Shown one piece after another: positions 23,240 to 38,245 of a stretch of 64,000 nt of DNA. The notes under the pieces were generated by a model. It ran no database searches, was not told the DNA's origin, and was given only the letters and a program-made list of their open reading frames with translations. Both the position numbers and the translations under genes were made by a program. This stretch comes from a virus. The stretch is taken from positions 32,001-96,000 of the IMG/VR virus record IMGVR_UViG_3300047564_002155; one strand, written 5' to 3'. The stretch's first letter is position 1. Each line of letters begins with the position of its first letter.

Positions 23240-23268
23240 CCATACCTATTTATTTTGTGAGGTATTAT

Positions 23269-25812
23269 ATGAAAAGTAAAGAGTATTACATTCGTTTAGG
23301 TGAAGCGGTTCAAAAGCTAGAAGAAAAGAATTGCCCAACCGACCCATCAAAGTGGTCATATTATAAATCACAAGCAAAAGAAAAGTTTGATGTATATCCA
23401 TCAGCATATGCTAATGGGTGGGCTTCAAAACAATATGGTGATGCTGGTGGTGGTTGGAAGAAATGTGAAAACGAAGCTACTGATTCTCAAGAAAAAGAAT
23501 TTCATACTCAACTTGATAAGTTAGTTCACAAAACTTTTGGTAAAAGTCCGGAAGAAGAAAAAATGGATGAGAAGTTTGATAGAACTCACCTTGGTATTTT
23601 AAAATACGCTTATAAGGACATTGATAAAATCAATCCATCCGACCCAATGTATGTTAGAGTGGCTCAGATGTTGGATAAATTATCAAAACAGGAATTACAA
23701 CAATTGATTGATGCTGACATTAAGTTCATATCACTTCTTGCAAAGAATCGTTTATCAAAAAAAGAATCAGTAAACGAAGAAAAAGTAGATATGGAAGAGC
23801 TAGAAATGATGCTAAAGAAATTAAAAAAAGAGAATCCAGGTAAAAAAGTAACATACAGTTTTATTAAAGGTAAACAATACCCTAAAGGTTATGTTATTAA
23901 AATAAATGGAAAAATTTTAGAAGGTGAATCAGTAAACGAATCTCATTTTCAAGTTGGTGATAATGTCACTTGTCTTAAAAGTGGTATGACTGGTCAAGTT
24001 GTTGGGATGGATAAACCACACGGTGCGGATGATGAGGAATATTATACAGTTAAAAGACAAGATGGTGAAGTAATGAAATACTCACCAAACGAATTAAGAC
24101 TTACTGAAAACACTTTGAAAGAAGGTTTGTTCCAAGACATTATGAGAGCTGTTAAAAAAGGTGATGGTCCTTTCACTTTGGTTGTTATTAAGAACAACAA
24201 AGTAATTAAACAAGTAGAAGTTAAAACTCCACAAGCAATCCCTGCAAACTACTCTTCATTATTAAAAGATTTTCCTAATACGAGAATCAGAATAGAGGAT
24301 GCAACAGGTAAAATTGTAATGGGTGAATCGGTAAACGAAGCTAAGGCAATCGGAAAAAAGATATTCTCTGATGCTAAAGGAAAACTTTTCTTTGGATACC
24401 AAAATGATGATGATACTGTTCAACTTGTAGATTACAAAACTTGGAAAAAACTTCCAATGACGGACTTATCTAATGAGTTTATGGCTAACAGAATAATCAA
24501 CTCAATTGTTAGAAATGAAAGACAATTCAACAAAAAAGTTGAATACAATATGTGGTCTAAAAAGACTAACCCATCTTTTGAAGAGAGAATGGATTACTTC
24601 ATTAAAAACAATTGGATATCTAATATCACTAAAACTGGTATCAAAGAATCGGTAAACGAATCATCAATGAGTAATATTGATATTATCGCACAAGAAGCAA
24701 AAGATTTTAAAGATTTTGTGAAAGAGTTCTACAACGAATACAAAGATTTTCCAAAAGATAGAGATACTATTAAATGGTTAAAAGGTGTTTATGATAATAG
24801 AAGCACAAACGAATCGGTTGAATCATTAGATGAAAAATTACCAAATGAGTTTGCTACCATTCCTAATGATTCTCGTGTAGATGGTATGATGAAACATCTT
24901 CAGCACCATTTGGGTGTTATTAGTAAGAATGTAAAGACTGGTAAAGGTGTTTACAAAAAGGATTTGATGAAGATGGCAAACATCATTAAAGCCCTTCAAA
25001 TGTATGAATCAAAATCAGTAAACGAATCATCGGTTGAAATTGGTGATATCGTATTGTTCCCACCAGCGAATAGTGCTGCTACTGTTGTTGATAGGTTTGG
25101 TAGAAGTGTGACCTTAAAGTTGGCTAATGGTAAAAAAGTTAAAACCGTGGTTGATAAAGTTAAGTTATTAGCACAAGATAATGTAAACGAGGGTAATGCT
25201 TTCACAGGTGCTTTGTTCAAAGCTCGTAAAGAAGGTTTGACTGAATTTGAATTCAACGGAAAAAAATATCCGGTTCACAAACTTGAAGAAGAAAAAGAAG
25301 AAACTCTTGCTGAATCAAAATTGACCAAAGATTCTTTGAAGCAAATTATCAAAGAAGAATACCATAATGTAAAAACCTTTATGGAAGAAAAATACGGATT
25401 TACTCCTGAATTAGGTAAGGTATATTCCAATCTTGCAGCTAAACCTTTTTTAAAAGAAGAAGAGGAAGAGGTAGTTGATGAGTATGATGTAGAAAATTAC
25501 CAAGACCTAAAAGAGTTTGTTCAGTTTATGGCTGAATACAAAAGTGATATCAACGAGGCAGAATATCAAGGTAGAAAAGTAAAACTTGGTAAGATTATGC
25601 AAGGTGATGTTAAGAAATTCAAAGTATATGTTAAGAACGACAAAGGTAATGTTGTTAAAGTAAACTTTGGACAAGGTGGTGATGCTAAGGGTGGAACTAT
25701 GAGAATTCGTAAAGACAATCCTAAAGCAAGAGCATCGTTCAGAGCAAGACACAATTGTGATAACCCTGGTCCAAGATGGAAAGCAAGATATTGGTCTTGT
25801 CGTAAATGGTAA
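23269..25812 (+). CDS. Putative head-internal polyprotein of ESVNE-delimited modules
   Basis: Start more likely ATG 23269 (GAGGT upstream) than GTG 23257; four ESVNE plus KSVNE/NVNE/INE linkers separate about 12 unrelated 30-100 aa modules, two of them KOW/SH3-like. Confidence 0.65.
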   Translation: MKSKEYYIRLGEAVQKLEEKNCPTDPSKWSYYKSQAKEKFDVYPSAYANGWASKQYGDAGGGWKKCENEATDSQEKEFHTQLDKLVHKTFGKSPEEEKMDEKFDRTHLGILKYAYKDIDKINPSDPMYVRVAQMLDKLSKQELQQLIDADIKFISLLAKNRLSKKESVNEEKVDMEELEMMLKKLKKENPGKKVTYSFIKGKQYPKGYVIKINGKILEGESVNESHFQVGDNVTCLKSGMTGQVVGMDKPHGADDEEYYTVKRQDGEVMKYSPNELRLTENTLKEGLFQDIMRAVKKGDGPFTLVVIKNNKVIKQVEVKTPQAIPANYSSLLKDFPNTRIRIEDATGKIVMGESVNEAKAIGKKIFSDAKGKLFFGYQNDDDTVQLVDYKTWKKLPMTDLSNEFMANRIINSIVRNERQFNKKVEYNMWSKKTNPSFEERMDYFIKNNWISNITKTGIKESVNESSMSNIDIIAQEAKDFKDFVKEFYNEYKDFPKDRDTIKWLKGVYDNRSTNESVESLDEKLPNEFATIPNDSRVDGMMKHLQHHLGVISKNVKTGKGVYKKDLMKMANIIKALQMYESKSVNESSVEIGDIVLFPPANSAATVVDRFGRSVTLKLANGKKVKTVVDKVKLLAQDNVNEGNAFTGALFKARKEGLTEFEFNGKKYPVHKLEEEKEETLAESKLTKDSLKQIIKEEYHNVKTFMEEKYGFTPELGKVYSNLAAKPFLKEEEEEVVDEYDVENYQDLKEFVQFMAEYKSDINEAEYQGRKVKLGKIMQGDVKKFKVYVKNDKGNVVKVNFGQGGDAKGGTMRIRKDNPKARASFRARHNCDNPGPRWKARYWSCRKW

Positions 25813-25868
25813 TTATTAACATTGAATTACATACTTATTAGTAGTTTTAAATTAAATTGGAATAAACT

Positions 25869-26144
25869 ATGGAAACATTAAAGAAAGTTTGGAATTGGTT
25901 ACTTGGTAAAACTACCATTGATGAAAAAATCAAAGAAACCGTTGCCGAAGTTAAAAAAGAAGTAGCCGAAGTAAAGGTTGCTGTTGCAGAAGTAAAAGTT
26001 GCTGCTAAAAAAGTAGTAAAAGAAGCATCTGATGTAGCTAATGTAGTAGAAAAAGCTGCTCCTAAAAAGAAAAGATACTACCCAAAGAAAAAAGCTGCTG
26101 CTAAAACCGAACCAACTGCTAAAAAGCCGGCTGCCAAAAAATAA
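25869..26144 (+). CDS. Small Lys/Ala-rich (histone H1-like tail) protein
   Basis: Amphipathic N-terminus, VAEVK repeats, C-terminal 'KKKAAAKTEPTAKKPAAKK'. Confidence 0.55.
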   Translation: METLKKVWNWLLGKTTIDEKIKETVAEVKKEVAEVKVAVAEVKVAAKKVVKEASDVANVVEKAAPKKKRYYPKKKAAAKTEPTAKKPAAKK

Positions 26145-26489
26145 ATGAAACGATTCAATACTCAACAACTTGTAATTCTTGCTTTATTAGCTTTACTGGC
26201 ATATCAATTCTTTTTTGCTGGTAATCGTTACAAAAAAGATTACGAAAGAATGTTGAAAGAGCGTGAACAAGAATACAACACGCAGATTGAAAAGTTAGAA
26301 AGTCAATCAGATTCTCTTTTAAAAATCAATAAAGATATTGAAAAAGAATTAAAAAGAATTGATGGTCAAATTGGCAAAAAAGATGCTCAAATCAATAAGT
26401 TAAGGAAACAATATGAAAAAGATGTTGCTAAGCTTGACGCTATGTCTGATAACGACATTGCCGATGCTTTCACAGACGCTTTCAACTGA
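26145..26489 (+). CDS. Putative i-spanin-like membrane protein
   Basis: N-terminal TM helix (LVILALLALLAYQFFF) followed by a long coiled coil; 3' end overlaps the next gene in another frame. Confidence 0.5.
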   Translation: MKRFNTQQLVILALLALLAYQFFFAGNRYKKDYERMLKEREQEYNTQIEKLESQSDSLLKINKDIEKELKRIDGQIGKKDAQINKLRKQYEKDVAKLDAMSDNDIADAFTDAFN

Positions 26490-26820
26490 ATCTAACTTAA
26501 TTGCAGTTCCGAGAGCGGCTCTTGAAAACGCATTAAAGGTAAAAGCAGAACGTGACTTGTGTGTTAATGAATTACGATTAACACAAGAAAAGGTTGTTTT
26601 ATACTCAAAATCTATTGATTTGTATAAAGTTGAAGTTGAAAACTTAAATAAAGTTATTACTTCAAAAGATTTGGTTATTGTAGAAAAAAACAAAATAATT
26701 TCTCTAAAAGAAGACCAAATCAAAGTTTTAAAAAGAGAAAAATCTTCTAAAATGTGGCAAGGTCTTTTGGTTGGCTTTGCTGGTGGAGCTGCTACGGTTA
26801 CATTATTGCTCGCTCTATAA
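26413..26820 (+). CDS. Putative spanin partner (signal peptide, coiled coil, C-terminal TM)
   Basis: 'MKKMLLSLTLCLITTLPMLSQ' signal peptide; C-terminal 'WQGLLVGFAGGAATVTLLLAL'; 77-nt overlap with the upstream gene as in Rz/Rz1 pairs. Confidence 0.45.
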   Translation: MKKMLLSLTLCLITTLPMLSQTLSTESNLIAVPRAALENALKVKAERDLCVNELRLTQEKVVLYSKSIDLYKVEVENLNKVITSKDLVIVEKNKIISLKEDQIKVLKREKSSKMWQGLLVGFAGGAATVTLLLAL

Positions 26821-26830
26821 ATAAAAATGT

Positions 26831-28405
26831 ATGGCAAAAAGTTTAAAGGAACTTATTAGGGAAGAGTACATTAAATGTGCTAAAGACCCAGTGTATTTCT
26901 TTAAGAAATATTGTTATATCCAACACCCTCACCGAGGTAAAATTCTTTTCAATCTTTATGATTTCCAAGAAGATTTGATGAGGGAGTTTGATGACCACAG
27001 GTTTAATGTAATCCTCAAATCACGTCAGTTAGGTATTTCTACTCTATCCGCCGGATACTCTTTATGGATGATGTTATTCCACGAAGATAAAAACATTTTG
27101 GTAATTGCAACCAAACAAGAAGTAGCAAAAAACCTTGTGACTAAAGTAAGGTTTATGCACGAAAACCTACCAAGTTGGTTAAGAGGCCAAACCGAAGAAG
27201 ACAATAAACTTTCTTTACGATTGAGAAATGGTTCTCAAATTAAAGCAACATCAGCAGCAGGTGACGCGGGTCGTTCTGAAGCTCTTTCAATGTTAATTAT
27301 GGATGAGGCTGCGTTTATTTCCAACATTGAAGATATTTGGACTTCTGCTCAATCAACTCTTTCAACCGGTGGTAAAGCTATTGTCTTATCAACTCCAAAT
27401 GGTGTTGGTAACTGGTTTCATAAAATTTGGTTAAAAGGTGAGGCCGGTGATAGTTGGAATCCAATCAAACTTCACTGGACCGTTCACCCTGAACGAAACC
27501 AAAGTTGGAGAGATGACCAAACAAAATTACTTGGTGAAAAGGGCGCAGCACAAGAATGTGATTGTGACTTTATCAGTTCGGGTTACACGGTAGTAGACTC
27601 ATCAATTCTAACTTGGTATACTGAAACTTATATTAAAGACCCAATTGAAAAACGAGGATTTGATGGAAATTATTGGTTGTGGGAATATCCAAATTATTCT
27701 CGTGACTATGTAGTGGTAGCCGATGTGGCTCGTGGCGATTCATCCGACTATTCAGCATTTCACGTTATTGATATTGAAACCGTAGAACAAGTTGCTGAAT
27801 ACAAAGGTAAGATTGAAACCAAACAATATGGAGCATTCCTTACATCGGTTGCTGCGGAGTGGAACAATGCTATGTTGGTGGTTGAAAACGCAAACATTGG
27901 TTGGGCTGTAATCCAAGAAGTTATTGATAGAAACTATACAAACTTATATTACTCATATCGTGAGTTGGGTTATGTAGATGATGATGTCCACCTACGAAAA
28001 GGTTGGGACCTAAAGAAAAAAGAAGATATGGTTCCGGGCTTTACAATGTCTTCACGAACAAGACCTTTGGTGATTTCTAAACTTGATACCTATATGAGAG
28101 AAAAAACACCAATCGTTCACTCAAAGCGTTTAATTGATGAGCTGTTTGTATTCATTTGGAATGGTTCCAAGGCGGAGGCTCAACAAGGGTATAACGATGA
28201 CTTGGTTATGTCGTTCTCCACAGGACTTTGGGTAAGAGACACCGCATTAAAATTAAGACAACAGGGTATAGATTTAAGCCGTACCGCATTAACTCACATT
28301 TCAAAGACTCAAGGTGGTGTTTACAACGCCAGAATGGGACAACATAATCCTTGGGTATTAAAAGATGGTAGAGGTAATGATGTAGATATGACTTGGATAC
28401 TTTAA
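26831..28405 (+). CDS. terL: Terminase large subunit (T4 gp17-like)
   Basis: 'LYDFQ' Q-motif, 'KSRQLGIST' Walker A, 'LIMDEAAF' Walker B, 'STPNG', nuclease 'ADVARG' and 'DDLVMS'. Confidence 0.95.
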   Translation: MAKSLKELIREEYIKCAKDPVYFFKKYCYIQHPHRGKILFNLYDFQEDLMREFDDHRFNVILKSRQLGISTLSAGYSLWMMLFHEDKNILVIATKQEVAKNLVTKVRFMHENLPSWLRGQTEEDNKLSLRLRNGSQIKATSAAGDAGRSEALSMLIMDEAAFISNIEDIWTSAQSTLSTGGKAIVLSTPNGVGNWFHKIWLKGEAGDSWNPIKLHWTVHPERNQSWRDDQTKLLGEKGAAQECDCDFISSGYTVVDSSILTWYTETYIKDPIEKRGFDGNYWLWEYPNYSRDYVVVADVARGDSSDYSAFHVIDIETVEQVAEYKGKIETKQYGAFLTSVAAEWNNAMLVVENANIGWAVIQEVIDRNYTNLYYSYRELGYVDDDVHLRKGWDLKKKEDMVPGFTMSSRTRPLVISKLDTYMREKTPIVHSKRLIDELFVFIWNGSKAEAQQGYNDDLVMSFSTGLWVRDTALKLRQQGIDLSRTALTHISKTQGGVYNARMGQHNPWVLKDGRGNDVDMTWIL

Positions 28406-28431
28406 TTTGGTAGTGTAGTTTATTTTTTGTA

Positions 28432-28439
28432 TATTTATA
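28432..28439 (+). promoter_or_regulatory. Putative late promoter TATTTATA (portal)
   Basis: Recurrent intergenic motif. Confidence 0.5.
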
Positions 28440-28477
28440 GATTGTAAAAGTATACTCTTTTAGTTTAGAAAAACATT

Positions 28478-30337
28478 ATGGCAGACAATTCATTATTTGG
28501 AAGATTACAAAAACTATTCGCTACCCAAGTCATCGTAAGAAGAGTTGGGAAGAATCGTTTACAAGCCGTAGACTCACAAAGACTACAATCTCAAGGTAAT
28601 ATCCGTGGAACATCATACTACGATAGATTTGGTCGTTTACATACTTCTCGTAGGAATTGGGAAACCTACAACCAACAATTTAATTATCACTCAAACAAGT
28701 TAGAATTGTATACTGACTATGAGGCGATGGACAAAGATTCAATCATTACTTCTATTTTGGATATCTACTCCGATGAGTGTACCTTAAAGAACGATATGGG
28801 TGATGTGATTCGTATTAAATCTTCTGATGAGAATCTAAAAAAAATCCTTCACAACTTATTTTATGATATCTTAAATATTGAATTCAACCTTTGGGCTTGG
28901 GTTCGTGGTATGAACAAATATGGTGACTACTTTTTGTATTTAGATATTGAAGAGGGAGTTGGTATTGTAAATGTCCAACCAATTTCAGCATACGAATTTG
29001 AACGTGAAGAGGGATTTAATCCTGATAACCCTTATGAGGTTAGATTTAAATTATCCAATATGAGTTCTTCTACCAATTTCTCATATGGTAAAGATAAAAA
29101 TACATACTTCCCATTTTATCAGATTGCACACTTTAGATTAATGACCGACTCAAACTTCCTACCATATGGTCGTTCTTTGTTAGAGGGTGCTAGAAAAACT
29201 TGGAAACAATTAACTCTTATGGAAGACGCAATGATGATTCATAGAATTATGAGGGCGCCTGAAAAGAGAATCTTTAAAATTGATGTTGGTAATATCCCAC
29301 CACAAGAGGTTGACCAACATATGAGAAACATTATTGATGGAATGAAAAAAGTTCCATATATTGACCAGAACACGGGTGATTACAACCTCAAGTTCAATAT
29401 GATGAATATGTTGGAAGACTATTTCTTGCCGGTTCGTGGTGGTCAAAGTGGAACTGAAATTGATTCTTTGAGTGGTATGGAATTCGGTGGTATTGATGAT
29501 ATTGAATACCTAAAGAATAGAATGATGGCTGCTTTAAAAGTTCCTAAAGCATTCATTGGATATGAAGAGGGTGTGGAAGGTAAAGCTACCCTTGCTCAAC
29601 AAGACATCAGATTTGCAAGAACTGTGGAACGAGTTCAAAAGATTGTTCTATCAGAACTTACTAAAATTGCAATTGTTCACCTTTACTCACAAGGATACGA
29701 AAACGAAGACCTCGTTAATTTTGAGTTAGAGCTTACAAACCCATCTATTATTTACGAACAAGAGAAAATTGCTTTACTTTCTGAAAAGACAACTCTTGTA
29801 AGCAATATGAAGGATTTGAAGATGATTTCACAAGAGTGGATTTACAAAAACATCTTTAATATGTCTGATGATGAGTGGGAAAAAGAACAACAAAAAGTAA
29901 TTGATGACTTGAAGTTATCGTTCAGACACGAACAAATTACTACCGAAGGTAACGACCCAGCTAAAACGGGTGAATCGTTTGGAACACCTCACGACCTTGC
30001 TGTGATTGCACAACAACCTGCTGAAGAAGAGGGTGGTTCTCCTGAAGGTGGATTTCCTGGCGCTGGAAGACCAACTGAAAGTGGAACATACGGAACCGAC
30101 CAAGCAAATATGGGTAGAGACCCACTTGGTAAACAAACCGACATTAGTAGAGACAGTACATATCATAATTTTAGAAAAGGGCCAATGGCGGTTGAATCTC
30201 AAACGGCATTAAAATCTTCTCTGAAAAAAATGAAGGTTAAAACCAAGTCTATGATTATGGAATCCTTAAAACCAGAGTCTAAAACTGAAGAGCTGGGGTT
30301 GTTGGATGAGTCACAATTGTTAGATGATACGATTTAA
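28478..30337 (+). CDS. gp20: Portal protein (T4 gp20-like)
   Basis: 'LMEDAMMIHRIMRAPEKRIFKIDVGNIP', 'MLEDYFLPVRGG...GTEIDSL', 'ALKVP'. Confidence 0.95.
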   Translation: MADNSLFGRLQKLFATQVIVRRVGKNRLQAVDSQRLQSQGNIRGTSYYDRFGRLHTSRRNWETYNQQFNYHSNKLELYTDYEAMDKDSIITSILDIYSDECTLKNDMGDVIRIKSSDENLKKILHNLFYDILNIEFNLWAWVRGMNKYGDYFLYLDIEEGVGIVNVQPISAYEFEREEGFNPDNPYEVRFKLSNMSSSTNFSYGKDKNTYFPFYQIAHFRLMTDSNFLPYGRSLLEGARKTWKQLTLMEDAMMIHRIMRAPEKRIFKIDVGNIPPQEVDQHMRNIIDGMKKVPYIDQNTGDYNLKFNMMNMLEDYFLPVRGGQSGTEIDSLSGMEFGGIDDIEYLKNRMMAALKVPKAFIGYEEGVEGKATLAQQDIRFARTVERVQKIVLSELTKIAIVHLYSQGYENEDLVNFELELTNPSIIYEQEKIALLSEKTTLVSNMKDLKMISQEWIYKNIFNMSDDEWEKEQQKVIDDLKLSFRHEQITTEGNDPAKTGESFGTPHDLAVIAQQPAEEEGGSPEGGFPGAGRPTESGTYGTDQANMGRDPLGKQTDISRDSTYHNFRKGPMAVESQTALKSSLKKMKVKTKSMIMESLKPESKTEELGLLDESQLLDDTI

Positions 30338-30385
30338 CCTACAATACGATATTTATTTATTAGAAAGTCAAATAAAAGGTTTGAA

Positions 30386-31225
30386 ATGGGTAAGTTAAAA
30401 CACAGTAAGTTCAAAAATACGGGTATTTTATTTGAGTTGCTCGTGAGACAAATTGCTGCTGATACATTAGGTGGCAAAAACTCACTGGCGCTTGAAATAA
30501 TTAAATCCCATTTCAAAAAAGGGACTGAACTAACCAAAGAGTTAAATCTCTATCAGACGCTTCAAAAAGAAACATTTGATACTCAATATAAAGCTCAAGA
30601 ATTTGTTAATATTATTTTAGAGCAGAGAAAAGGTTTAAACGAATCTATTCTTCGTAGACAAAAATATAATCTTATCAAATCTATCAAAGAATCTTATAAG
30701 ATTGATGACTTTTTTAAGTATCGTGTAAACAATTACAAAGAATTAGCATCAACCTACAAGTTATTTGAATATAAGCAAGAAAATTCTCCAAAAGAATGGG
30801 TTGATTGTAAGAATACTATCTTTGAAAGTATTATCACCAAAAAAGAACAATTGGTAGAACAAAAAACCAACGAAGAATACACAACACAACCAAAAGAGGT
30901 TCGTTTATTGGCTTACAAATTCTTGGTTGATTCATTCAATGAAAAATATTCAAGTTTAACTTCGGAACAAAAGAATGTATTAAGAACATACATCAATAAT
31001 ATTGATAATTCAGAGAAATTAAGAAAGTATGTTATATCTGAAGTTAAAAAATTAAAGACCGCATTTGGTAAAGTAAAAGTATCTGATAAGGTTCTATCTA
31101 TTAAGTTAAACGAAACTGTTAATTTGATGGAAAGTATCGCAACATCAAAGGTAATCAGCGAAACGCAGGTTCTTTCTCTATTAAGATACCACGAATTGCT
31201 TCAAGAAGTGAGGAAACTAAAATGA
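30386..31225 (+). CDS. Head-cluster hypothetical protein
   Basis: 279-aa helical ORF directly downstream of the portal; several L-x-E sites. Confidence 0.55.
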   Translation: MGKLKHSKFKNTGILFELLVRQIAADTLGGKNSLALEIIKSHFKKGTELTKELNLYQTLQKETFDTQYKAQEFVNIILEQRKGLNESILRRQKYNLIKSIKESYKIDDFFKYRVNNYKELASTYKLFEYKQENSPKEWVDCKNTIFESIITKKEQLVEQKTNEEYTTQPKEVRLLAYKFLVDSFNEKYSSLTSEQKNVLRTYINNIDNSEKLRKYVISEVKKLKTAFGKVKVSDKVLSIKLNETVNLMESIATSKVISETQVLSLLRYHELLQEVRKLK

Positions 31226-31731
31226 GTAAATACTTGCTAAAAGAACTTGAAGACAAATTCAATCAACTTGAACTTCAACAAGAAGAAGATGAGTTGGATG
31301 AAGCAAATGTGACCGCAAACCTTGATGGTGGTGCTGGTCCCCCAAGAACCCCATATGCTTTTGCTAAAAGTGAGGATGATATGGATGATGACCACATTGA
31401 AGTATTAGGATACAAAAAATCAAAAAAATCAAATCAACATTTTGAATCACTTTCACAATTAGATTCTAAATTAGAAAGTTTGATTGAAGCAACCTATCGT
31501 GCTTATAGAAAAGATGAGTCAATGTCTGCAAAGAAAAAAGTGAATCTTGCTATCAAAGAAATCAATCGTAAGTTGTATGAGGTTGAACAATTAGTAAATC
31601 AGAATACAAAACTTAAAACCGAAATGGGATTGAGTCAAGGTCAGTATTGGGAATCTACAAAAGTAAGATTTAGTAAGATTTCCGAAAGAATGTTAAAGAT
31701 TTCTCGTAAGATTAAAGAGCTGGGGTCGTAA
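31222..31731 (+). CDS. Head-cluster hypothetical protein (probable prohead core component)
   Basis: N-terminal 'MSKYLLKE', internal LDE/LIE sites, C-terminal coiled coil. Confidence 0.55.
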   Translation: MSKYLLKELEDKFNQLELQQEEDELDEANVTANLDGGAGPPRTPYAFAKSEDDMDDDHIEVLGYKKSKKSNQHFESLSQLDSKLESLIEATYRAYRKDESMSAKKKVNLAIKEINRKLYEVEQLVNQNTKLKTEMGLSQGQYWESTKVRFSKISERMLKISRKIKELGS

Positions 31732-31732
31732 T

Positions 31733-31873
31733 ATGTCTTGCGGATGTGAAAAGAACCAAGTTAATGAAGCTTTAGAGGTGGATGACATCTCTCAAATCAG
31801 ATTGTTGATTCGTAAAGAATTAGCTAAAGTATTTCTTGACCTTTACCGCAAAAAACAAATCTGGGAAAAATAA
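31733..31873 (+). CDS. Small 46-aa ORF not in the ORF track (MSCGCEKNQVNEALEVDD...KKQIWEK)
   Basis: Fills the gap exactly: ATG just after the previous stop, TAA overlapping the protease ATG (TAATG); contains VNE. Confidence 0.65.
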   Translation: MSCGCEKNQVNEALEVDDISQIRLLIRKELAKVFLDLYRKKQIWEK

Positions 31874-32514
31874 TGAAACAATTATTAGTTGATACTACTG
31901 TATTCCAAATTACACCTCAAATCTTGAAGGAGTCGCAAGACCGCCACGGAAGATTTTTGGTTACAGGTGTATTGCAGAGAGCAAACGCTAAAAACCAAAA
32001 TGGTAGAGTATATCCAAGAAACATTCTTGAAAGAGAAGTTGAAAAATACAAGGGTAGGGAAATCAAAGAAAACCGAGCATATGGCGAACTTGACCATCCG
32101 GAATCATCGGTAATTGAATTGAAAAACACATCGCACGTTGTTCGTGATGTGTGGTGGAATGGTGATGATGTAGTTGGTGCTGTTGAAATCTTAAACACAC
32201 CTGCTGGCAAAATCTTACAAGAGTTAATCAAAGCAGAATGTACGGTTGGTATCTCATCAAGAGGTATGGGTTCCGTGAGTCAGATTAAAGAAGATGGAAC
32301 TGTTGCTGTTGAAGGTGACTTTGAGTTGATTTGTTGGGACTTTGTTTCTAACCCATCAACGCATGGAGCTTTTATGAGACCTACAAATGAAGGGGTTATC
32401 AAAGAGTCAGTTCAAAGAAAACAAACTAATTATAATAAGGTTAATACACTTATGAGAGAAATCATCTGCGAAGTGGGTGGATATTGTGAGTGTGATTTTG
32501 GAGATATAAAATGA
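31873..32514 (+). CDS. gp21: Prohead protease (T4 gp21-like)
   Basis: 'GVLQRANAKNQNGRVYP', 'GELDHP', 'GISSRGMGS', 'WDFVSNPSTHGA'. Confidence 0.95.
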   Translation: MKQLLVDTTVFQITPQILKESQDRHGRFLVTGVLQRANAKNQNGRVYPRNILEREVEKYKGREIKENRAYGELDHPESSVIELKNTSHVVRDVWWNGDDVVGAVEILNTPAGKILQELIKAECTVGISSRGMGSVSQIKEDGTVAVEGDFELICWDFVSNPSTHGAFMRPTNEGVIKESVQRKQTNYNKVNTLMREIICEVGGYCECDFGDIK

Positions 32515-33341
32515 AAATGATGTCATTACTAAAAGAAAACGCTAGTAGAACCGCAATGGAAATTGGCGGTTTGACTGGTTTAAACAAAGACGCAATCCAA
32601 AAGTTTGTTGATACTCACAATATGGATATTGAGAAGGTTTACCAATATGTTAAAAAGTCAAAGTTAACAGATAGACTTAATTTTGTAACCGCAGTTGTTG
32701 GAACTCCTGGAAATCCGGTTCAAAAGAGAATGATTAAGATGTTTGGTGAATCGGTAAACGAATCACAAGACCACGAAGTTTCAATGGCTCAAAATTCATT
32801 GGACTCTATTATCAAATACGCTACTGAATTGAAGCAAAAAATGGGTGAGATGGAAAAGGATGTTCCTGCTTGGATTCAAGACCACATCACTAATGCTGAA
32901 AACTATGTATCTCAAGCCGCTTCAAACTACCACGAATATGGTAGTGGTATGAACGAGGGTGTATTGAATGAAATGAATCGCCAGTTAAATGTAAAAGTTA
33001 ACAAGATGTTATCATACGAACTTGGTGATATGAGAAAAGGTGGAGCTAATCACTTATGGGCTATTATGCACATTTTGATGGGTGCATTAACCGATGCTAA
33101 CTTCCATTCAGATGCAAAGAAAGTTCCTGCTATCTTCGGTTCAAAAGCAAAATACGAAGGTGACCCACAAGGTGAGAAAGACCTTGAGAAAATGTACGAA
33201 TACGATTTAGGTCCGACCATTGCTGCTCTTGCAAAATGGGATGGTAAAGACATCGTAAACGCAGTTGGTTTTTATGTATCAATGAATGTTGGTAGACCAA
33301 TGGGTGAAAAAATTGAAAAACTTGTTGAAGGTAAAAAATAA
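32511..33341 (+). CDS. Putative head-internal modular protein
   Basis: N-terminal MKMMSLLKE; ESVNE and MNE/LNE linkers separate three modules, including 'DHEVSMA...VPAWIQDHIT'. Confidence 0.6.
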   Translation: MKMMSLLKENASRTAMEIGGLTGLNKDAIQKFVDTHNMDIEKVYQYVKKSKLTDRLNFVTAVVGTPGNPVQKRMIKMFGESVNESQDHEVSMAQNSLDSIIKYATELKQKMGEMEKDVPAWIQDHITNAENYVSQAASNYHEYGSGMNEGVLNEMNRQLNVKVNKMLSYELGDMRKGGANHLWAIMHILMGALTDANFHSDAKKVPAIFGSKAKYEGDPQGEKDLEKMYEYDLGPTIAALAKWDGKDIVNAVGFYVSMNVGRPMGEKIEKLVEGKK

Positions 33342-33352
33342 GGACAACTAAA

Positions 33353-34963
33353 ATGAAAAAATTATCACAACTTCTTAAAGAATCACAAGATTTAGATTAC
33401 CGCAGAATGAATGTTGGTGAAGAAGAAGGTCAGGGTATGACCAAAGAAGAAAAGCGTGCGTTCGTTGAAGCTGTTGCTGCTTACCGTCAATTAGGTGAAA
33501 TGATTTCACACAAAGGTAATTTGGCTGAAATTCACGACTCTATCAAAGGTATCGTAGAAAGTGCTAATAACATTACGTTAAAAGAAACTGGTGATTGGTT
33601 TGATAGAGTAACTGTTCAGAGACATATGAAATCTATGAACGAATCATTCAAGGTATTCTCAAGCACCTTAAAAGAGGTGTCTACTCTTCAACAAAGATTG
33701 GAATCTACTTACGATGAAATTGGTGAGGTTCTTGGTAAATACTACGAAATCAAAGAAGGTAATGAGTTTGGTGCTGAAAGAGCTAAAGCAATTGCTGGTG
33801 GTGAAGATTCATTTGAAGTTGATGGTAAGTCATACAAGGTAACTGGAGTAGACGCTGAAGACAAGAAGAACGCAGAAGAGTTTGCTAATGAATCTATGAA
33901 GTTAACATCTTTAATCAAAAGAAACGAAGAGTTAACTGGTCGTCAAAAAGAATTGGATGTTGATAGTGATGGTGACATTGAAGCTGATGACTTGGCTGAT
34001 TTAAGAGCTGGCAAAAAAGCAGATGAATCAGTAAACGAAGCGGTATCTCCGGCGGATATGGATAAAATTAAAGGGGCAGTAGAAGCAGCATCTTCATTTA
34101 TGAGTGTGGGTAGTGAGTTAAAGAAATTAGGTATGAAATATACTTTCGCTACCGAACCATTACCAATTTATATTATACAACCAACTCCAAATAACAAAGT
34201 TGCTATTGTAAATAAGAAATATGCAACCAAACCTGATTTTGTGGTTGGTGATATTGCAGTAGGTATAATGGAAGGCAAATTAAACGAAGAAGAAATTAAG
34301 TGGAATGCAGTTGAAAACGCAATCATCAACTTCTTAAAGATGAACACCAAAATTTTGGACAAGAGAGTTCAAGCTAAAGATACCGATGGTGTTAAAGGTG
34401 GATTAAAATCTATCATTAGTGGTTTGACTAATGCACAAAGAAATTTGAAGTTAGAATCAGTAAATGAAGCTAGTTATGTGAGTGGATACACTGTAAAAGC
34501 TAAAACTCCATATGAGTTTGTAAATGGCGCATACGCAGTTCTAAATGCATATTTAAGAGATGAAGAACTTGGACCAAAAGGTAAAAAAGAATTACAAGAT
34601 ATCTTAAAGTCATTAGAGTATATGAGAAAGTATTTCTTCTTTAAGTTGAGTGAATCAACCGAATCGGTAAATGAAATCACACTTGCTAGAGGTTTAAAAG
34701 ATTTAATTAAAGGAACAACCTCATCAGTTGAAGGTATTAAAGTTTCTAAAGAATTAGCAAGTGCTATTGCAGGATGGGCTACCGGTTCTACTTATGGTCA
34801 AAGATATGGTAATCAAATGTTGAAGTCTCCGTTTGCTAATGTTTGGCAGATGGTATTTAGTCCTTCATTTGGAGTTGAAGCACATTTGAAAAGATACGAC
34901 AAGGAAGCTTTAAACACTTTGAAGCCCGAACTTATGAAAATCAAGTCAAAATTGGGAATGTAA
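33353..34963 (+). CDS. Putative head-internal polyprotein (ESVNE-delimited)
   Basis: MKKLSQLLKE N-terminus; three ESVNE linkers plus KLNE/IKE; EF-hand-like 'DVDSDGDIEADDL'; shares one module with 23269..25812. Confidence 0.65.
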   Translation: MKKLSQLLKESQDLDYRRMNVGEEEGQGMTKEEKRAFVEAVAAYRQLGEMISHKGNLAEIHDSIKGIVESANNITLKETGDWFDRVTVQRHMKSMNESFKVFSSTLKEVSTLQQRLESTYDEIGEVLGKYYEIKEGNEFGAERAKAIAGGEDSFEVDGKSYKVTGVDAEDKKNAEEFANESMKLTSLIKRNEELTGRQKELDVDSDGDIEADDLADLRAGKKADESVNEAVSPADMDKIKGAVEAASSFMSVGSELKKLGMKYTFATEPLPIYIIQPTPNNKVAIVNKKYATKPDFVVGDIAVGIMEGKLNEEEIKWNAVENAIINFLKMNTKILDKRVQAKDTDGVKGGLKSIISGLTNAQRNLKLESVNEASYVSGYTVKAKTPYEFVNGAYAVLNAYLRDEELGPKGKKELQDILKSLEYMRKYFFFKLSESTESVNEITLARGLKDLIKGTTSSVEGIKVSKELASAIAGWATGSTYGQRYGNQMLKSPFANVWQMVFSPSFGVEAHLKRYDKEALNTLKPELMKIKSKLGM

Positions 34964-35120: not shown

Positions 35121-35155
35121 AAAAATTGTATTTATTACAATATAAAAAACAAGTT

Positions 35156-35407
35156 ATGGAAGAAAACAAAAAATTCAAAAAAGTTAGAAAAGCCGAAATG
35201 GTTATTGTGGGAAAGCCCAACGCTGTGAAGGTAGTAAACAACAACATTGAAGCCGCTTTACGATTCTGGAAAAAGAATATGAAAGAAAGTGGTAAAATTG
35301 AATGGATTAAATCACATAGAGAATATGTGAAACCAACTACGGAAAAAAGAGAGCTACGAAATCAAGCACTCCGTAAAGAGTGGACACGACGCCAACAACA
35401 AGAATAA
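35156..35407 (+). CDS. rpsU: Phage-encoded ribosomal protein bS21
   Basis: 'VKVVNNNIEAALRFWKKNMKESGKIEWIKSHREYVKPTTEKR' matches the bS21 pattern (V...IE.ALR.FK....G......R..Y.KP...R); ATG 35156 preferred over TTG 35126. Confidence 0.85.
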   Translation: MEENKKFKKVRKAEMVIVGKPNAVKVVNNNIEAALRFWKKNMKESGKIEWIKSHREYVKPTTEKRELRNQALRKEWTRRQQQE

Positions 35408-35557: not shown

Positions 35558-36565
35558 ATGGCAAAATCAGATTTGCTCAAAGAAGCTATCGCTGACGCAA
35601 AAGCCGTAAAAGAAACTGCTTTAGCTAACGCTAAGTTGGCTTTAGAAGAAGCATTTGCTCCACGAATTCAGTCTATGTTGTCTCACAAACTCGCAGAAGA
35701 ACTTGACGATGAGGAAGTTTCTGAAGAAGAGGAAGAGATGACTGCTGAAGTACCTGCAATGGAAGAAGAGGATGAAATGTCCGCTGACGCTGAAATGGGT
35801 GCTGAAGAAGATATGACTGAAGAAGAGGATGAAATGTATTCTGAAGAAGACCAAATGGGTGCTGAAGAAGAGATGGATATGGCTGCTGACTCTGATGAAG
35901 AAGGTGAAGAATACGAACTTACCGGTGATGAAGAAGAAGACACCGAAGAGGACGACCTTGACCTTGAAGCAGTAATCAGAGAATTAGAAGACGCAATGGC
36001 TTCCGATGAAGAAGAAATGGCATTTGAAGAAGATGAAATGGAAGATGAAATGACATCTGAAGAAGATGAAATGGAAGATGAAATGACATCTGAAGAAGAT
36101 GAAGAAGAACTTGACATCAACGAAATCATCCGTACCTTGAAAGAAATGGAAGGTAATGGCGAAGAAGAGATGACCGAGGAAGAAGAAGACGCTACTGAAG
36201 GTTACAAAGAAGAATTGGAAGAAGCTTATAAGACTATTCAGTCTATGAGAAAAACCATCAACGAAGTAAACTTACTTAACGCAAAACTTCTTTACACGAA
36301 CAAGTTGTTCAGAACTTTTGATTTGAACGAGTCTCAAAAAGTTAAAGTAATTGAAAACTTTGATAGAGCTTCAAACTTGAGAGAAGTAAAATTAGTATTT
36401 GCTACATTAGGTGAAAACTTAAATGTCGCTAGAAAAAAGAAAACAGTTGTTAAAGAATCACTCGCTTCTAAACCAATGAAGTCAACTGCAGCTCCTAAAA
36501 AGATTTTATCTGAAGGTGACGCAGTAGCTGAAAGATTTAAGAAGTTAGCTGGTTTGATTAAATAA
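35558..36565 (+). CDS. Prohead core/scaffolding protein (T4 gp22-like)
   Basis: Very acidic, coiled-coil protein immediately upstream of the major capsid gene; AGGAG upstream. Confidence 0.75.
   Translation: MAKSDLLKEAIADAKAVKETALANAKLALEEAFAPRIQSMLSHKLAEELDDEEVSEEEEEMTAEVPAMEEEDEMSADAEMGAEEDMTEEEDEMYSEEDQMGAEEEMDMAADSDEEGEEYELTGDEEEDTEEDDLDLEAVIRELEDAMASDEEEMAFEEDEMEDEMTSEEDEMEDEMTSEEDEEELDINEIIRTLKEMEGNGEEEMTEEEEDATEGYKEELEEAYKTIQSMRKTINEVNLLNAKLLYTNKLFRTFDLNESQKVKVIENFDRASNLREVKLVFATLGENLNVARKKKTVVKESLASKPMKSTAAPKKILSEGDAVAERFKKLAGLIK
36026..36103 (+). repeat. 33-bp tandem repeat (EEDEMEDEMTS x2 plus partial) in scaffold gene
   Basis: gaagaagatgaaatggaagatgaaatgacatct at 36026 and 36059; partial copy at 36092. 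Confidence 0.85.
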
Positions 36566-36595: not shown

Positions 36596-38245
36596 ATGAA
36601 AGTAAATAACATTTTAGCTGAATCTGCTGGTTTCAACAAGAGAATGTCTGAAGAGACTAAAGGTATCGTATCTAAATGGGCTAAAACTGGTCTTTTAGAA
36701 GGTTTATCTTCAGATTTTGAAAAGTCAGGAATGGCTACTCTACTTGAAAACCAAGCAAAGCAATTAGTATCTGAAGCATCTGCTACAGGTACATCGGCAA
36801 ACTCTGAAGAGTGGAGCGGTGTCGCTTTACCTTTGGTACGCCGTATCTTCTCTGAAATCGCAGCGAAAGAATTCGTTTCGGTTCAACCTATGAACTTACC
36901 TTCGGGTCTTGTATTCTACTTGGACTTCAAGTATGGTACAGGTCAACCAGGTTTCACTACTGGTTCTGGTAAAAACTCACAAGCTGATTCAGTATTCGGT
37001 ATCACCGAAACTGGTTCAAATGCTACTGGTGGTCTTTACGGAGACGGTCGTTTCGGTTACACTATCAATGAAACTCAATCTGCTGCGTTAGGTTATGGTT
37101 CACTTGGTGCTAGTAACGTAGCTACTAGCTCATTAAGCGAATCAGACTACAACTTTGACACCGCGTGGTCAGCATCAGTTTACGTTAACTACCCAGGTAT
37201 TTCTGGTGGTGTATCTATCCACACTTTGAGCGTATCTGCGTCTTCAATCAGCGGATTTGATTCAAATGGTGTTAAGGCGTTCCAACCAGTTGGTGATGCT
37301 GTAACTGCTTACTACCCACAATTCACTACTTACAACTCTACAACTGAAGTTGTCAAGTTTGTTGTATTGGGTGATGTTGACAATGGTGACACTGTTGTTA
37401 TCAAGTACCAAAAGCAACCAACTGATATCACTCGTGGTGACTTTGAACAATCAACTTCAGGTTTCGCTGCAAACCCAGAAACCGATTTAGGTATTCCTGA
37501 ATTGAACGTAGAGCTTCGTTCTATTCCAATCGTTGCTAAGACTCGTAAGTTGAAGGCACAATGGACTCCAGAATTCGCTCAAGACTTGAACGCATACCAC
37601 TCAATTGACGCTGAAGCTGAATTAACCTCAATGTTGTCAGAGTACATCTCACAAGAAATTGACCTTGAAATCTTGGATATGTTACAACAAAACGCATTGA
37701 CTACTGGTCACTGGTCGGCTAAAGTTGGTTACGAGTGGAATGGTTCATCATTCGCTCAATCTGCGGCTAACTACACTGCATACATCCAAGGTACTTGGTT
37801 TGCTACATTAGGTACTGTTCTTCAGAGAGTATCTAACCAAATCCACGCTAAGACTATGAGAGGTGGAGCAAACTTCTTGGTAGTATCTCCTGATGTTGCA
37901 ACTATCCTTGAGTCTATTCCAGGATACACCGCAAATGGTACAGGTGAAGCAATGCAGTTCGCAATGGGCGTATCTCAAGTAGGTTCATTCGCTAACCGCT
38001 ACACTGTTTACAAGAACCCATACATGCAATCAAATATGATTCTTATGGGCTTCAAAGGTGCTCAATTCCTTGAGACTGGTGCTGTTTACGCTCCATACAT
38101 CCCATTGATTATGACTCCTCTTGTGTACGACCCGAAAAACTTCCAACCTCGTAAGGGTGTAATGACTCGTTACGCGAAGGAAATGATTCGTGGTGAGTTC
38201 TACGGTAAAGTATTCGTTCACGGTCTTGAGACTGTTGGACAATAA
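36596..38245 (+). CDS. gp23: Major capsid protein (T4 gp23-like)
   Basis: 'LLENQ', 'LPLVRR', 'VQPMNLPSGLVFYL', 'AKTRKLKAQWTPEFAQDLNAYHSIDAEAEL', 'YAPYIPL', 'FQPRKGVMTRY'. Confidence 0.97.
   Translation: MKVNNILAESAGFNKRMSEETKGIVSKWAKTGLLEGLSSDFEKSGMATLLENQAKQLVSEASATGTSANSEEWSGVALPLVRRIFSEIAAKEFVSVQPMNLPSGLVFYLDFKYGTGQPGFTTGSGKNSQADSVFGITETGSNATGGLYGDGRFGYTINETQSAALGYGSLGASNVATSSLSESDYNFDTAWSASVYVNYPGISGGVSIHTLSVSASSISGFDSNGVKAFQPVGDAVTAYYPQFTTYNSTTEVVKFVVLGDVDNGDTVVIKYQKQPTDITRGDFEQSTSGFAANPETDLGIPELNVELRSIPIVAKTRKLKAQWTPEFAQDLNAYHSIDAEAELTSMLSEYISQEIDLEILDMLQQNALTTGHWSAKVGYEWNGSSFAQSAANYTAYIQGTWFATLGTVLQRVSNQIHAKTMRGGANFLVVSPDVATILESIPGYTANGTGEAMQFAMGVSQVGSFANRYTVYKNPYMQSNMILMGFKGAQFLETGAVYAPYIPLIMTPLVYDPKNFQPRKGVMTRYAKEMIRGEFYGKVFVHGLETVGQ

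Follow-up and report, generated by a model that had tools for sequence, protein, structure and literature searches.

The window, a stretch of 64,000 nucleotides, belongs to the 168-kb, 94%-complete genome of a T4-like phage of Bacteroidota, in which three head-gene proteins of 851, 276 and 536 amino acids consist of unrelated small basic modules chained by one five-residue linker (Table 1). The linker is encoded by GAATCRGTAAAYGAA, of which eight exact copies are found on the + strand, all in frame and all read as ESVNE; the first gene (23257-25812) holds four copies plus the variant KSVNE, the second (32511-33341) one and the third (33353-34963) three. All eight had been listed in an earlier note on this DNA, with the pattern GAA-TC(A/G)-GTA-AA(C/T)-GAA, and each was recovered in frame at its position, with no occurrence in 100 dinucleotide-preserving shuffles and no further copy on either strand of the entire genome. 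The note had described an array within one reading frame, a description that has to be amended given that the copies are spread over three genes.

Table 1. Linkers, polyprotein genes and neighbouring head genes, with their positions in the window
Feature	Position	Strand	Remarks
851-aa polyprotein	23257..25812	+	about nine unrelated linker-joined modules; upstream of terminase gene; ORF and translation
Linker 1 of 851-aa ORF, ESVNE	23764..23778	+	canonical 15-mer
Linker 2 of 851-aa ORF, ESVNE	23926..23940	+	canonical 15-mer
Linker 3 of 851-aa ORF, ESVNE	24325..24339	+	TCG variant
Linker 4 of 851-aa ORF, ESVNE	24646..24660	+	TCG variant
Decayed or misaligned linker NESVE, Val = GTT	24808..24822	+	high-identity block with relative L041 stops here
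Ninth near-copy, variant linker KSVNE	25012..25026	+	AAA first codon, one base off canonical; L045 homology block begins immediately after
Degenerate linker DNVNE, then Gly	25177..25191	+	GTA AAC GAG
T4 gp21-type prohead serine protease (Peptidase_S77)	31873..32514	+	Pfam PF03420 5.6e-31; phrog_207; aligns to T4 gp21 (PDB 5jbl)
276-aa polyprotein	32511..33341	+	directly 3' of protease gene; leader MKMMSLLKE, 84-aa module, linker, 192-aa part
Linker of 276-aa ORF, ESVNE	32748..32762	+	TCG variant
536-aa polyprotein	33353..34963	+	acidic conserved N-terminal module (229 aa, pI 4.9), then basic cassettes of 143, 69 and 95 aa
Linker of 536-aa ORF, ESVNE	34025..34039	+	canonical 15-mer
Degenerate internal linker GKLNE	34274..34288	+	its downstream 60-aa cassette stands alone behind canonical linker in relatives
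Linker of 536-aa ORF, ESVNE	34454..34468	+	AAT variant; site of single 180-nt cassette indel vs L003
Linker of 536-aa ORF, ESVNE	34661..34675	+	TCG and AAT variant
Acidic scaffold-like protein, gp22 position	35558..36565	+	INE and LNE sites; placed by gene order
gp23-type major capsid protein	36596..38245	+	Pfam Gp23 5e-77

A search of the 851-aa polyprotein against Pfam families gave no match; its individual modules match stand-alone small proteins in pelagiphages, cyanophages and roseophages, and in Microcystis phage Mel-JY01 the N-terminal module of the 536-aa protein has a gene of its own, which follows the protease gene. Pfam has no match for 70 of the 76 module families. The cassettes are mostly basic, like the T4 internal proteins, with a median pI of 9.4 and 82% lying above pI 8.

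The S77 protease gene adjoins two of the three polyprotein genes, and its product is presumed to be the enzyme that cuts the linkers. It contains a His and a Ser at positions that are Ala in the aligned chain of T4 gp21 (5jbl) and that we take to be the mutated catalytic pair of that chain. The N-terminal propeptide of the capsid protein carries several hydrophobic-x-Glu sites (ILAE9, LLE35, LLE51 and VSE60), and in the alignment with mature T4 gp23, residue 25 of the latter falls on residue 72 of this protein. The gp21-type proteases cut after Glu in a short motif (PMC9026906, PMC5694885), and the linker, as far as its residues indicate, fits a hydrophobic-x-Glu site for the T4 gp21-type (S77) prohead protease that the phage itself encodes. 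The density of hydrophobic-N-E sites is 9.0 per 1000 amino acids in the three proteins and 0.94 in the remaining genome. Moreover, when module 4 is internal, a linker is found in place of its leader MKMMSLLKE. It is likely that the primary job of the linker is to act as the prohead-protease cleavage site, a role absent from the earlier note, and we infer that the linkers are cleaved and the cargo packaged.

The linker is also conserved as DNA, beyond what codon bias provides. Under independent codon usage the pattern has a probability of 0.116 per linker copy and 3e-8 for the eight copies. Codon context has a strong influence in this genome, where TCG makes up 23% of Ser codons before Val (7.5% overall), TCT only 4% (25% overall) and GTA 58% of Val codons before Asn. 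A codon-pair null that includes such context effects lifts the expectation to 0.17 per copy, or about 7e-7 for eight, and a pattern-blind test, allowing two or fewer variable bases among eight draws, gives P = 1.5e-5, values that place the codon pattern well outside background usage. Elsewhere in the genome, VNE has GTC or GTT for Val in eight of nine cases.

Family-wide counts were made on 80 non-redundant ESVNE sites from related IMG/VR contigs, which are not independent since many are orthologues; the relatives compared are all metagenome assemblies. Val is GTA in 80/80, Ser is TCA in 61, TCG in 17 and TCC in two, never TCT or AGY, Asn is AAC in 69/80, and the two Glu codons are GAA in 78/80 and 76/80. 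Variant linkers mostly have ATA for Ile and CTA for Leu, each one base from the GTA of the master 15-mer, and the Hamming distances of hydrophobic-N-E sites to this master are 0 for 50 sites, 1 for 35, 2 for 17 and 3 for nine, followed by a tail. In the same proteins from 11 relatives, most invariant residues vary synonymously, including 10/10 Val, 4/4 Ser and 5/5 Asn columns, as does the conserved KSMNES site. The contention that protein-level selection alone would not fix these codons has thus withstood the comparison, in that the codon-pair null is rejected whilst neighbouring invariant residues are free to vary.

These data bear on another explanation, in which illegitimate recombination occurs anywhere and only in-frame, cleavable products survive, such that the linker marks breakpoints without promoting them and its uniform DNA is a by-product of codon and context bias together with shared descent. 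The lift from 0.116 to 0.17 that codon context brings is in its favour, as is the codon AAC, which is preferred in the capsid and scaffold genes also and is favoured in highly expressed head genes; hence the linker codon pattern may partly be expression-linked bias. Against it stand GTA at 80/80 sites where context would give 58%, the absence of TCT and AGY, the arrangement of the variants as one-base neighbours of a single master sequence and the synonymous variation of the neighbouring conserved modules.

A different constraint at the level of bases, such as translation speed or accuracy, an off-frame stop or a site for mRNA processing or binding, with the recombination pattern incidental, would account for some features of the 15-mer. 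In 97/100 sites the hydrophobic codon ends in A, across Val, Ile and Leu variants and hence even where the residue changes; T-A-A at linker positions 8-10, read from the sequence, puts a stop in the +1 frame of nearly every linker, and the A-ending codon could reflect the keeping of this TAA. Furthermore, the 15-mer occurs solely as coding sequence on the gene strand: a scan of 828 kb found 147 copies on that strand, 143 of them ESVNE in an open frame, and none on the opposite strand. Such a constraint is nevertheless considered improbable. The 15-mer matches no known element, and conservation extends over 15-17 bases only, that is five codons and one base on each side. Linkers within one genome resemble each other more than permuted ones do (0.99 vs 1.34 differences, with 0/5000 permutations reaching the observed value), a homogeneity that this explanation does not predict. 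At junctions with both flanks homologous, linker codon identity is about 0.77 at flank codon identities of 0.50 and 0.89 alike, and the somewhat greater divergence of linkers than of conserved flanks in close relatives (0.77 vs 0.89), a weak trend from 24 sequence pairs, would fit resampling among a few states and not simple purifying selection.

Identity of the linkers through recent duplication of the modules is the simplest reading of eight near-identical 15-mers in one window (the earlier note had offered duplication of linkers as the simpler alternative), but can be given next to no credence. The 45-nt flanks of the eight copies have no DNA similarity to one another and most modules are unrelated at the protein level. 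Relatives in which the shared module has just 57% protein identity retain the 15-mer, and one-base variants of it occur in Flavobacterium phage immuto, the capsid protein of which is only 53% identical. Recent linker duplication was ruled out on these grounds.

Among close relatives, module indels and exchanges end on the 15-mer, as the earlier note had anticipated. Over 11.2 kb at 98-99% identity, the sole indel between the window and L003 is a single 180-nt cassette whose junction overlap, 17 nt long, is the linker. Contigs L004/L042 and L008/L037, also 98-99% identical, differ by five cassette indels with junction overlaps of 16-21 nt. When homology blocks of at least 95% identity are counted, and near is defined as within 3 nt of a linker edge, 25 of 39 internal block starts and 16 of 24 ends lie near a linker edge, the random expectation being 0 and 1, respectively. 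The exceptions inspected fall on variant linkers (for example KSVNE, YNE, and ESIDE or LKE then Gly), with another at the GKLNE position as judged by coordinates. The 49 non-redundant ORFs contain 81 module families, 18 of which have more than one neighbour and three of which are present in at least two gene types. Between a 536-type and an 851-type gene, cassette 9 shows 91% identity over its whole linker-to-linker length and only 24-29%, the level of random sequence, outside it, and cassette F60 is 96-97% identical between phages with N-terminal modules at 82-84% identity.

Breakpoints at linkers would also be expected if selection spares only in-frame, cleavable junctions, and one junction, between ESIDE and DLKE with Gly after each, joins non-identical Glu-ending sites; sequence identity is therefore not strictly required. 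This selection-only explanation is nonetheless judged unlikely, as the junctions are exact, with overlaps of 16-21 nt and one linker each, and 98-99% identical phages carry one to five cassette indels per pair but none in the checked flanks (8.4 to 11 kb). The shared crossover point proposed in the note stands as regards module insertion, loss and exchange ending on the linker; crossover within the 15-mer, as opposed to selection merely retaining such junctions, is suggested by the comparison, and we infer that sequence identity itself promotes it.

It appears reasonably probable that the 15-mer is a dual-use element, a prohead-protease site as protein and a recombination joint as DNA. As protein, ES(V/I/L)NE would be the recognition site of the phage's own gp21-type prohead protease, cut after the final Glu, and would join unrelated, mostly basic small modules into three head-associated polyproteins. 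The N-terminal part, either a leader of 9-10 residues with hydrophobic-x-Glu at its end or the acidic 229-aa module, would bring the polyprotein into the prohead, where the protease would then release separate internal cargo proteins, as for T4 IPI-III and Alt. As DNA, the 15-17 linker bases are the only sequence common to otherwise unrelated cassettes and, because linkers are always in the same frame, crossover or short-patch conversion between two of them would produce an in-frame, still-cleavable array. The crossover may be performed by the general recombination system of the phage, the genome of which contains a RecA/UvsX-like gene, between genome copies or co-infecting relatives, such that cassettes would be deleted, duplicated, inserted and moved among the three genes and among phages. 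A length of 15-17 bases is short for RecA-type recombination. The uniformity of the linker DNA would arise because new junctions are rebuilt from existing linkers and drifted linkers drop out, the latter probably decaying to looser hydrophobic-N-E sites and fusing neighbours into larger units.

The note had likened the array to an integron, and a true integron- or shufflon-like system would have a dedicated site-specific recombinase or nuclease acting on the 15-mer, with cassettes possibly existing as circles. Every cassette is indeed bounded by direct repeats in a cassette-array layout, and for the PeSL cassettes of T4-type phages, which are analogous, mini-circles have been documented (PMC2839356). 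Such a system is very doubtful, however, given that searches of the 94%-complete genome with Phage_integrase, Resolvase, GIY-YIG, HNH and HNH_3 gave no match, where the same searches hit most control genomes (HNH_3 only 3/14). Moreover, the 15-mer, read by eye, has no inverted repeat and no internal dyad symmetry, and variant and misaligned junctions exist (ESVESVNE, ESVVNE). With no integrase, resolvase or homing nuclease found and a RecA/UvsX-like gene in the genome, the term 'integron-like' is valid only by analogy. The array shares with integron gene cassettes (attC, attI, IntI) a repeat-bounded set of exchangeable units of variable number and order, but has neither an integrase nor a folded attC-type site, and its cassettes are parts of one reading frame instead of promoterless genes.

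In the literature, no published description was found of a linker doubling as protease site and recombination joint. The T-even internal-protein loci encode IPI, IPII, IPIII and Alt with a capsid targeting sequence and gp21 processing (Repoila et al. 1994, cited in PMC3012670 and PMC12373910; Mullaney and Black 1996, cited in PMC9026906). As in the window, unrelated and mostly basic cargo shares only a short targeting or cleavage peptide ending in Glu, the loci are set among T4-type head genes with a gp21-type protease, and polymorphism between relatives is strong. Repoila et al. 1994 (EMBO J) are said to have proposed that the conserved leader and flanking signals mediate shuffling. No sequence similarity of the T4 internal proteins to the window modules was found; the window cargo, with its cleavage and packaging as predicted features, differs in being fused in frame as polyproteins with the cleavage peptide between every unit, and its shared DNA amounts to 15-17 coding bases, a promoter or ribosome-binding block being absent.

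The polyvalent proteins of phages and conjugative elements (Iyer et al. 2017, PMC5512222) are likewise multi-domain products of genes lying close to virion genes, with a predicted delivery together with DNA, mosaic architectures and, in some cases, proteolytic processing. What defines them, however, is the presence of known conflict-related enzyme domains, in many cases alongside a built-in peptidase. A fixed linker is not described for them, the word 'linker' being absent from the text of PMC5512222; the window modules are about 50-140 aa and share a single fixed linker conserved as DNA. In the PeSLs of T4-type phages variable ORFan units lie next to a short, conserved motif in the DNA (PMC2839356, PMC4122927), indels and replacements between near-identical phages terminate at the motif, and general phage recombination is invoked with no dedicated recombinase. 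PeSLs, for which mini-circles have been shown, are intergenic, combining an early promoter with a stem-loop, and move whole genes, whereas the window motif is coding, in frame and intragenic, with a separate protein-level role. Finally, the gp38 adhesin has glycine-rich motifs between hypervariable segments, and gp37 has conserved motifs (PMC3157838; Tetart et al. 1998 cited there). Here too, intragenic conserved motifs separate variable segments and exchanges in or near them give in-frame chimeras; in gp38, however, the motifs make up the structural core of a single domain, with loops as the variable segments, whereas the window units are whole unrelated domains of varying number and order, joined by a motif that is probably a protease site.

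The linker peptide ESVNE, which joins the modules, or cassettes, of the three polyproteins, is encoded by the 15-mer GAA-TC(A/G)-GTA-AA(C/T)-GAA. All eight copies of this 15-mer listed in the earlier note are present at the sequence level; each is in frame and lies on the strand that carries the genes, and none appears in shuffled sequence. They are spread over three open reading frames (851, 276 and 536 aa) and are not, as that note had supposed, housed within one. A ninth copy with one base changed encodes KSVNE (25012-25026), and no further copies of the 15-mer were found across the whole genome. The flanks of the copies have no DNA similarity to each other.

The phage record of 168,128 bp (37% G+C, 94% complete by CheckV), from which the window takes bases 32001-96000, carries nearly all of its genes on a single strand. 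Its capsid protein is closest, among named phages, to that of Microcystis phage Mel-JY01 (57% identity), followed by those of the Immutovirus Flavobacterium phages (53%), and Rhodothermus phage RM378 is also among the nearest. A small ORF at 35126-35407 lies between the 536-aa polyprotein gene and the scaffold gene; at the equivalent place in Mel-JY01 a gene is annotated as ribosomal protein S21, directly after that phage's homologue of the conserved N-terminal module.

Polyprotein genes and head-module genes, with positions in the window
Feature	Position	Profile match	Setting
851-aa polyprotein gene	23257-25812 (+)		
Large terminase	start 26831		T4-type head module
gp20 portal	start 28478		T4-type head module; followed by two small ORFs before the protease gene
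Peptidase_S77 prohead protease	31873-32514	PF03420 at 5.6e-31	followed by the 276-aa and 536-aa genes, then a small ORF
276-aa polyprotein gene	32511-33341 (+)		
536-aa polyprotein gene	33353-34963 (+)		
Acidic scaffold-like protein	start 35558		head module, before the capsid gene
gp23 major capsid protein	start 36596		head module, after the scaffold-like gene

The uniformity of the synonymous codons, on which the earlier note had laid its emphasis, goes beyond what genome codon usage would produce. With independent codon usage the pattern is expected at 0.116 per copy. Because the genome shows marked codon-context effects, a codon-pair null model was derived from all of its other genes, giving 0.17 per copy and 7e-7 for the eight copies, and a test without a pattern chosen beforehand returned P = 1.5e-5. 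Plain codon bias and codon-pair context are thus both too weak to be the cause. Codon-pair context across the genome is visible in the serine codons before Val (TCT in 4% vs 25% overall, TCG in 23% vs 7.5%) and in Val before Asn, which is GTA in 58% vs 38.5% of cases. Elsewhere than in the three ORFs, VNE is mostly written with GTC or GTT. An expression-linked codon preference would account for AAC at most, the capsid gene using GTT and GTA equally (19 each).

The same codons recur throughout the wider family, which was assembled by scanning IMG/VR with the 536-aa and 851-aa proteins as queries and comprises 52 related loci. The 80 non-redundant ESVNE sites use GTA for Val without exception. 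Their Ser codon is TCA in 61, TCG in 17 and TCC in 2, with TCT and AGY never used, 69 of them have AAC for Asn, and GAA stands at the two Glu positions in 78 and 76 respectively. As a control, most invariant residues of the conserved N-terminal module vary synonymously among 11 relatives, including all 10 Val columns, 4 Ser and 5 Asn, and synonymous variation is also found at KSMNES, a conserved site in the same proteins. Conservation is confined to the five codons (15-17 bases), beyond which only a T before and a G after are frequent. Variant linkers lie one base from the master sequence and mostly have ATA for Ile and CTA for Leu, and the hydrophobic-N-E sites as a whole are distributed by distance from the master as 50, 35, 17 and 9, with a tail of more distant sites. 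In Flavobacterium phage immuto, which is in culture, an 841-aa protein at the equivalent place has two one-base variants of the 15-mer, and its linkers read ESVNE and ESLNE. Recent duplication of linkers, which the earlier note had offered as the simpler alternative, is rejected, given the lack of relationship between flanks and the age of the linker. So too is a general DNA site: 828 kb of family DNA contains 147 copies of the motif on the gene strand and none on the opposite strand, and 143 of the 147 encode ESVNE in an open frame, in a setting of late head genes.

At the protein level the linker is probably a site cut by the phage's own gp21-type prohead protease, as far as can be inferred from sequence. 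The cleavage motif of gp21-type proteases has the form L/I-x-E. In the substrates of these enzymes the cut follows the Glu of a short motif (PMC9026906, PMC5694885, PMC10052503). All of the linkers end in V/I/L-N-E, and after the Glu a small or acidic residue is the rule (91 of 100 sites have A, E, S, G or V there). The density of hydrophobic-N-E sites in the three proteins is ten times that of the remaining genome, and the protease gene adjoins two of the three polyprotein genes. When the protease is aligned with T4 gp21 (5jbl), a His within DHP and a Ser within ISSRG lie opposite Ala in the 5jbl chain. These two residues are presumably the catalytic pair, mutated in the crystallised T4 gp21. 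The capsid propeptide likewise contains several hydrophobic-x-Glu sites, LLE51 and VSE60 among them, close to where mature T4 gp23 begins in the alignment. Leaders of 9-10 residues ending in LKE (MKMMSLLKE and MKKLSQLLKE) open the 276-aa and 536-aa proteins; they are absent where the same module sits internally, and their likeness to the T4 capsid targeting sequence (CTS), a leader of about 10 residues removed at a Glu, is one of pattern only. Another chain that may be cut by protease is a 1007-aa protein (19610-22633) whose N-terminus is cytidylyltransferase-like by Pfam and whose C-terminal part is ligase-like with KxDG; it also has an HExxH motif, and LNE and LKE sites separate its parts.

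The cassettes themselves are mostly basic, with a median pI of 9.4 and 82% of 61 cassette families above pI 8, and the conserved N-terminal module is acidic (pI 4.9), an arrangement that resembles the T4 internal proteins riding on an acidic core. Pfam and PHROGs have almost nothing to say about the modules. Pfam gave no hit for any of the 10 window modules and hits for only 6 of 76 family representatives (DUF3008, KOWx-like, DUF5661 and CarD_TRCF_RID). Weak hits of a few families among relatives' cassettes, to the RNA-polymerase-interacting CarD/TRCF domain (7e-5) and to a KOW-like one (9e-5), are a hint that some of the cargo might bind host transcription machinery. Pelagiphages, cyanophages and roseophages have small stand-alone proteins that match several of the modules in the 851-aa protein. 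For the 536-aa protein, an AlphaFold2 model built from a 12-row alignment had a mean pLDDT of 45.7 and is too poor to define domain limits.

The role of the 15-mer as a crossover point, as put forward in the earlier note, is supported by comparison of close relatives, in which module indels and exchanges fall on the motif. The window and L003, a locus on a related contig, are 98-99% identical over 11.2 kb, and the sole indel between them is one 180-nt cassette, where the alignment blocks overlap by 17 bases that correspond to the linker at 34454-34468 plus one base on either side. The contig bearing loci L004 and L042 differs from the near-identical contig bearing L008 and L037 by five cassette indels with junction overlaps of 16-21 bases. 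When homology blocks of at least 95% identity were gathered from all non-redundant polyprotein genes, internal block starts lay within 3 bases of a linker edge in 25 of 39 cases and internal ends in 16 of 24, against 0 and 1 for random positions. The off-linker exceptions that were inspected lie at altered linkers, for example KSVNE, YNE, and ESIDE or LKE with a Gly after it, and one more falls, by coordinates, at GKLNE, a degenerate linker of the 536-aa protein (34274-34288). Scars of misalignment are seen as ESVESVNE and ESVVNE in the linkers of relatives and as NESVE at 24808-24822 of the window, which looks, from its sequence, like a linker that has lost its Asn codon. Val is GTT in this NESVE; the corresponding site of a relative reads ESVVNE, and only in the window does a 68-aa cassette come next. 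An assembly artefact is by reasoning unlikely, as a repeat of 15-21 bases is shorter than the usual assembly k-mers and the cassette orders recur in several IMG/VR samples. Between L037 (3870-4859) and L042 (6559-6562), in phages that are 98% identical, there is also an insertion of about 1 kb at the stop codon of the 851-type gene.

Mobility of the cassettes is evident from their distribution. Splitting 49 non-redundant genes at the linkers yields 81 module families, 18 of which have more than one left or right neighbour. Modules also pass from one of the three genes to another. Module family 4 is N-terminal in the 276-aa type and internal in an 851-type protein, and families 9 and 12 are each found in several gene types. 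A 536-type and an 851-type gene share cassette 9 at 91% DNA identity over the stretch bounded by the linkers, with identity of 24-29% just outside. Cassette F60 reaches 96-97% identity, over a stretch that again begins and ends precisely at the linkers, in phages whose shared N-terminal module is 82-84% identical. The linkers inside one genome are closer to each other than permuted sets (0.99 vs 1.34 differences, with 0 of 5000 permutations reaching the observed value). Where a junction has homologous flanks on both sides, the linker codons are identical at about 0.77, both when the flank codons are at 0.50 and when they are at 0.89, a comparison of 24 pairs only. From this likeness within genomes, together with the flat identity, the linkers seem to be drawn again and again from a small shared pool and not simply frozen, a behaviour that fits exchange between linkers better than it fits plain purifying selection on the bases.

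The integron analogy drawn in the earlier note is only a loose one. An integron is expected to have an IntI-type tyrosine recombinase, but a PF00589 search that was positive in all 14 control genomes gave nothing in this genome, which is 94% complete. In place of the imperfect inverted repeat of an attC-type site there are 15-17 conserved bases with no dyad symmetry on reading them. Serine recombinases (PF00239) and GIY-YIG or HNH nucleases were also not found in this genome, so that profile searches reveal no dedicated recombinase or homing nuclease to move the cassettes. A RecA/UvsX-like gene is present outside the window, which makes general recombination over short identical stretches the simplest agent, in line with what has been argued for the PeSL cassettes (PMC2839356).

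PeSL are also similar in that indel and replacement breakpoints of close relatives fall on a short conserved motif (PMC2839356, PMC4122927). The PeSL motif, however, is an intergenic early promoter with a stem-loop terminator, whereas the motif here is coding, in frame and located in late head genes. Excised mini-circles that inverse PCR can detect are a further mark of PeSL-type shuffling. Polyvalent proteins (Iyer et al. 2017) have several recognisable conflict-related enzymatic or binding domains per chain, which is not the case here by Pfam. The same logic is found in the T4 internal-protein loci, which are polymorphic with a common leader (PMC3012670, PMC12373910), and in tail-fibre adhesins with their conserved intragenic motifs (PMC3157838). 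What distinguishes the present system from the T4 precedents is that one 15-base coding linker is both a probable protease site and the joint of whole unrelated polyprotein domains. This arrangement was not found described in the literature on phage polyproteins with prohead-protease linkers, and full-text matches to the linker peptide were unrelated, among the matches listed.

Tentatively, and with rather more doubt than confidence, the linker may be viewed as an evolved dual code, a protease site in the protein and a recombination joint in the DNA, which is uniform since uniformity spreads cassettes. It would then underlie an integrase-free, in-frame cassette system by which an entire aquatic T4-like clade continually re-assorts a common pool of capsid-delivered proteins, probably for host takeover or anti-defence, among three loading genes. 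The linker seems to be a clear case of synonymous sites constrained by recombination rather than translation. If the dual code is real, it would represent a natural plug-in for loading proteins into a virus head: any small protein placed between two 15-base linkers would be produced, taken into the prohead, released by cleavage and presumably injected, and the same linker would let phages trade cargo in frame. The finding joins two well-studied themes of T4 biology, the maturation of the head by proteolysis with its targeting peptides and the shuffling of modules at short motifs. It also points to a large pool of uncharacterised basic cargo, nearly all of the module families being without a known domain, and makes these proteins candidates for a part in early host takeover or in anti-defence.

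Two other regions of the window stand out. Within the capsid gene about 320 bases (37071-37398, against 11318-11636 of L003) have no megablast match to a relative that is otherwise 98-99% identical, and beyond this stretch identity is 90%; it may be a variable insertion domain of the capsid protein. Between 50001 and 58000 the G+C content is 45-58%, compared with about 37% for the genome, with a strong A-over-T skew, and this stretch is spanned by two giant ORFs (49220-53311 and 53335-57918).
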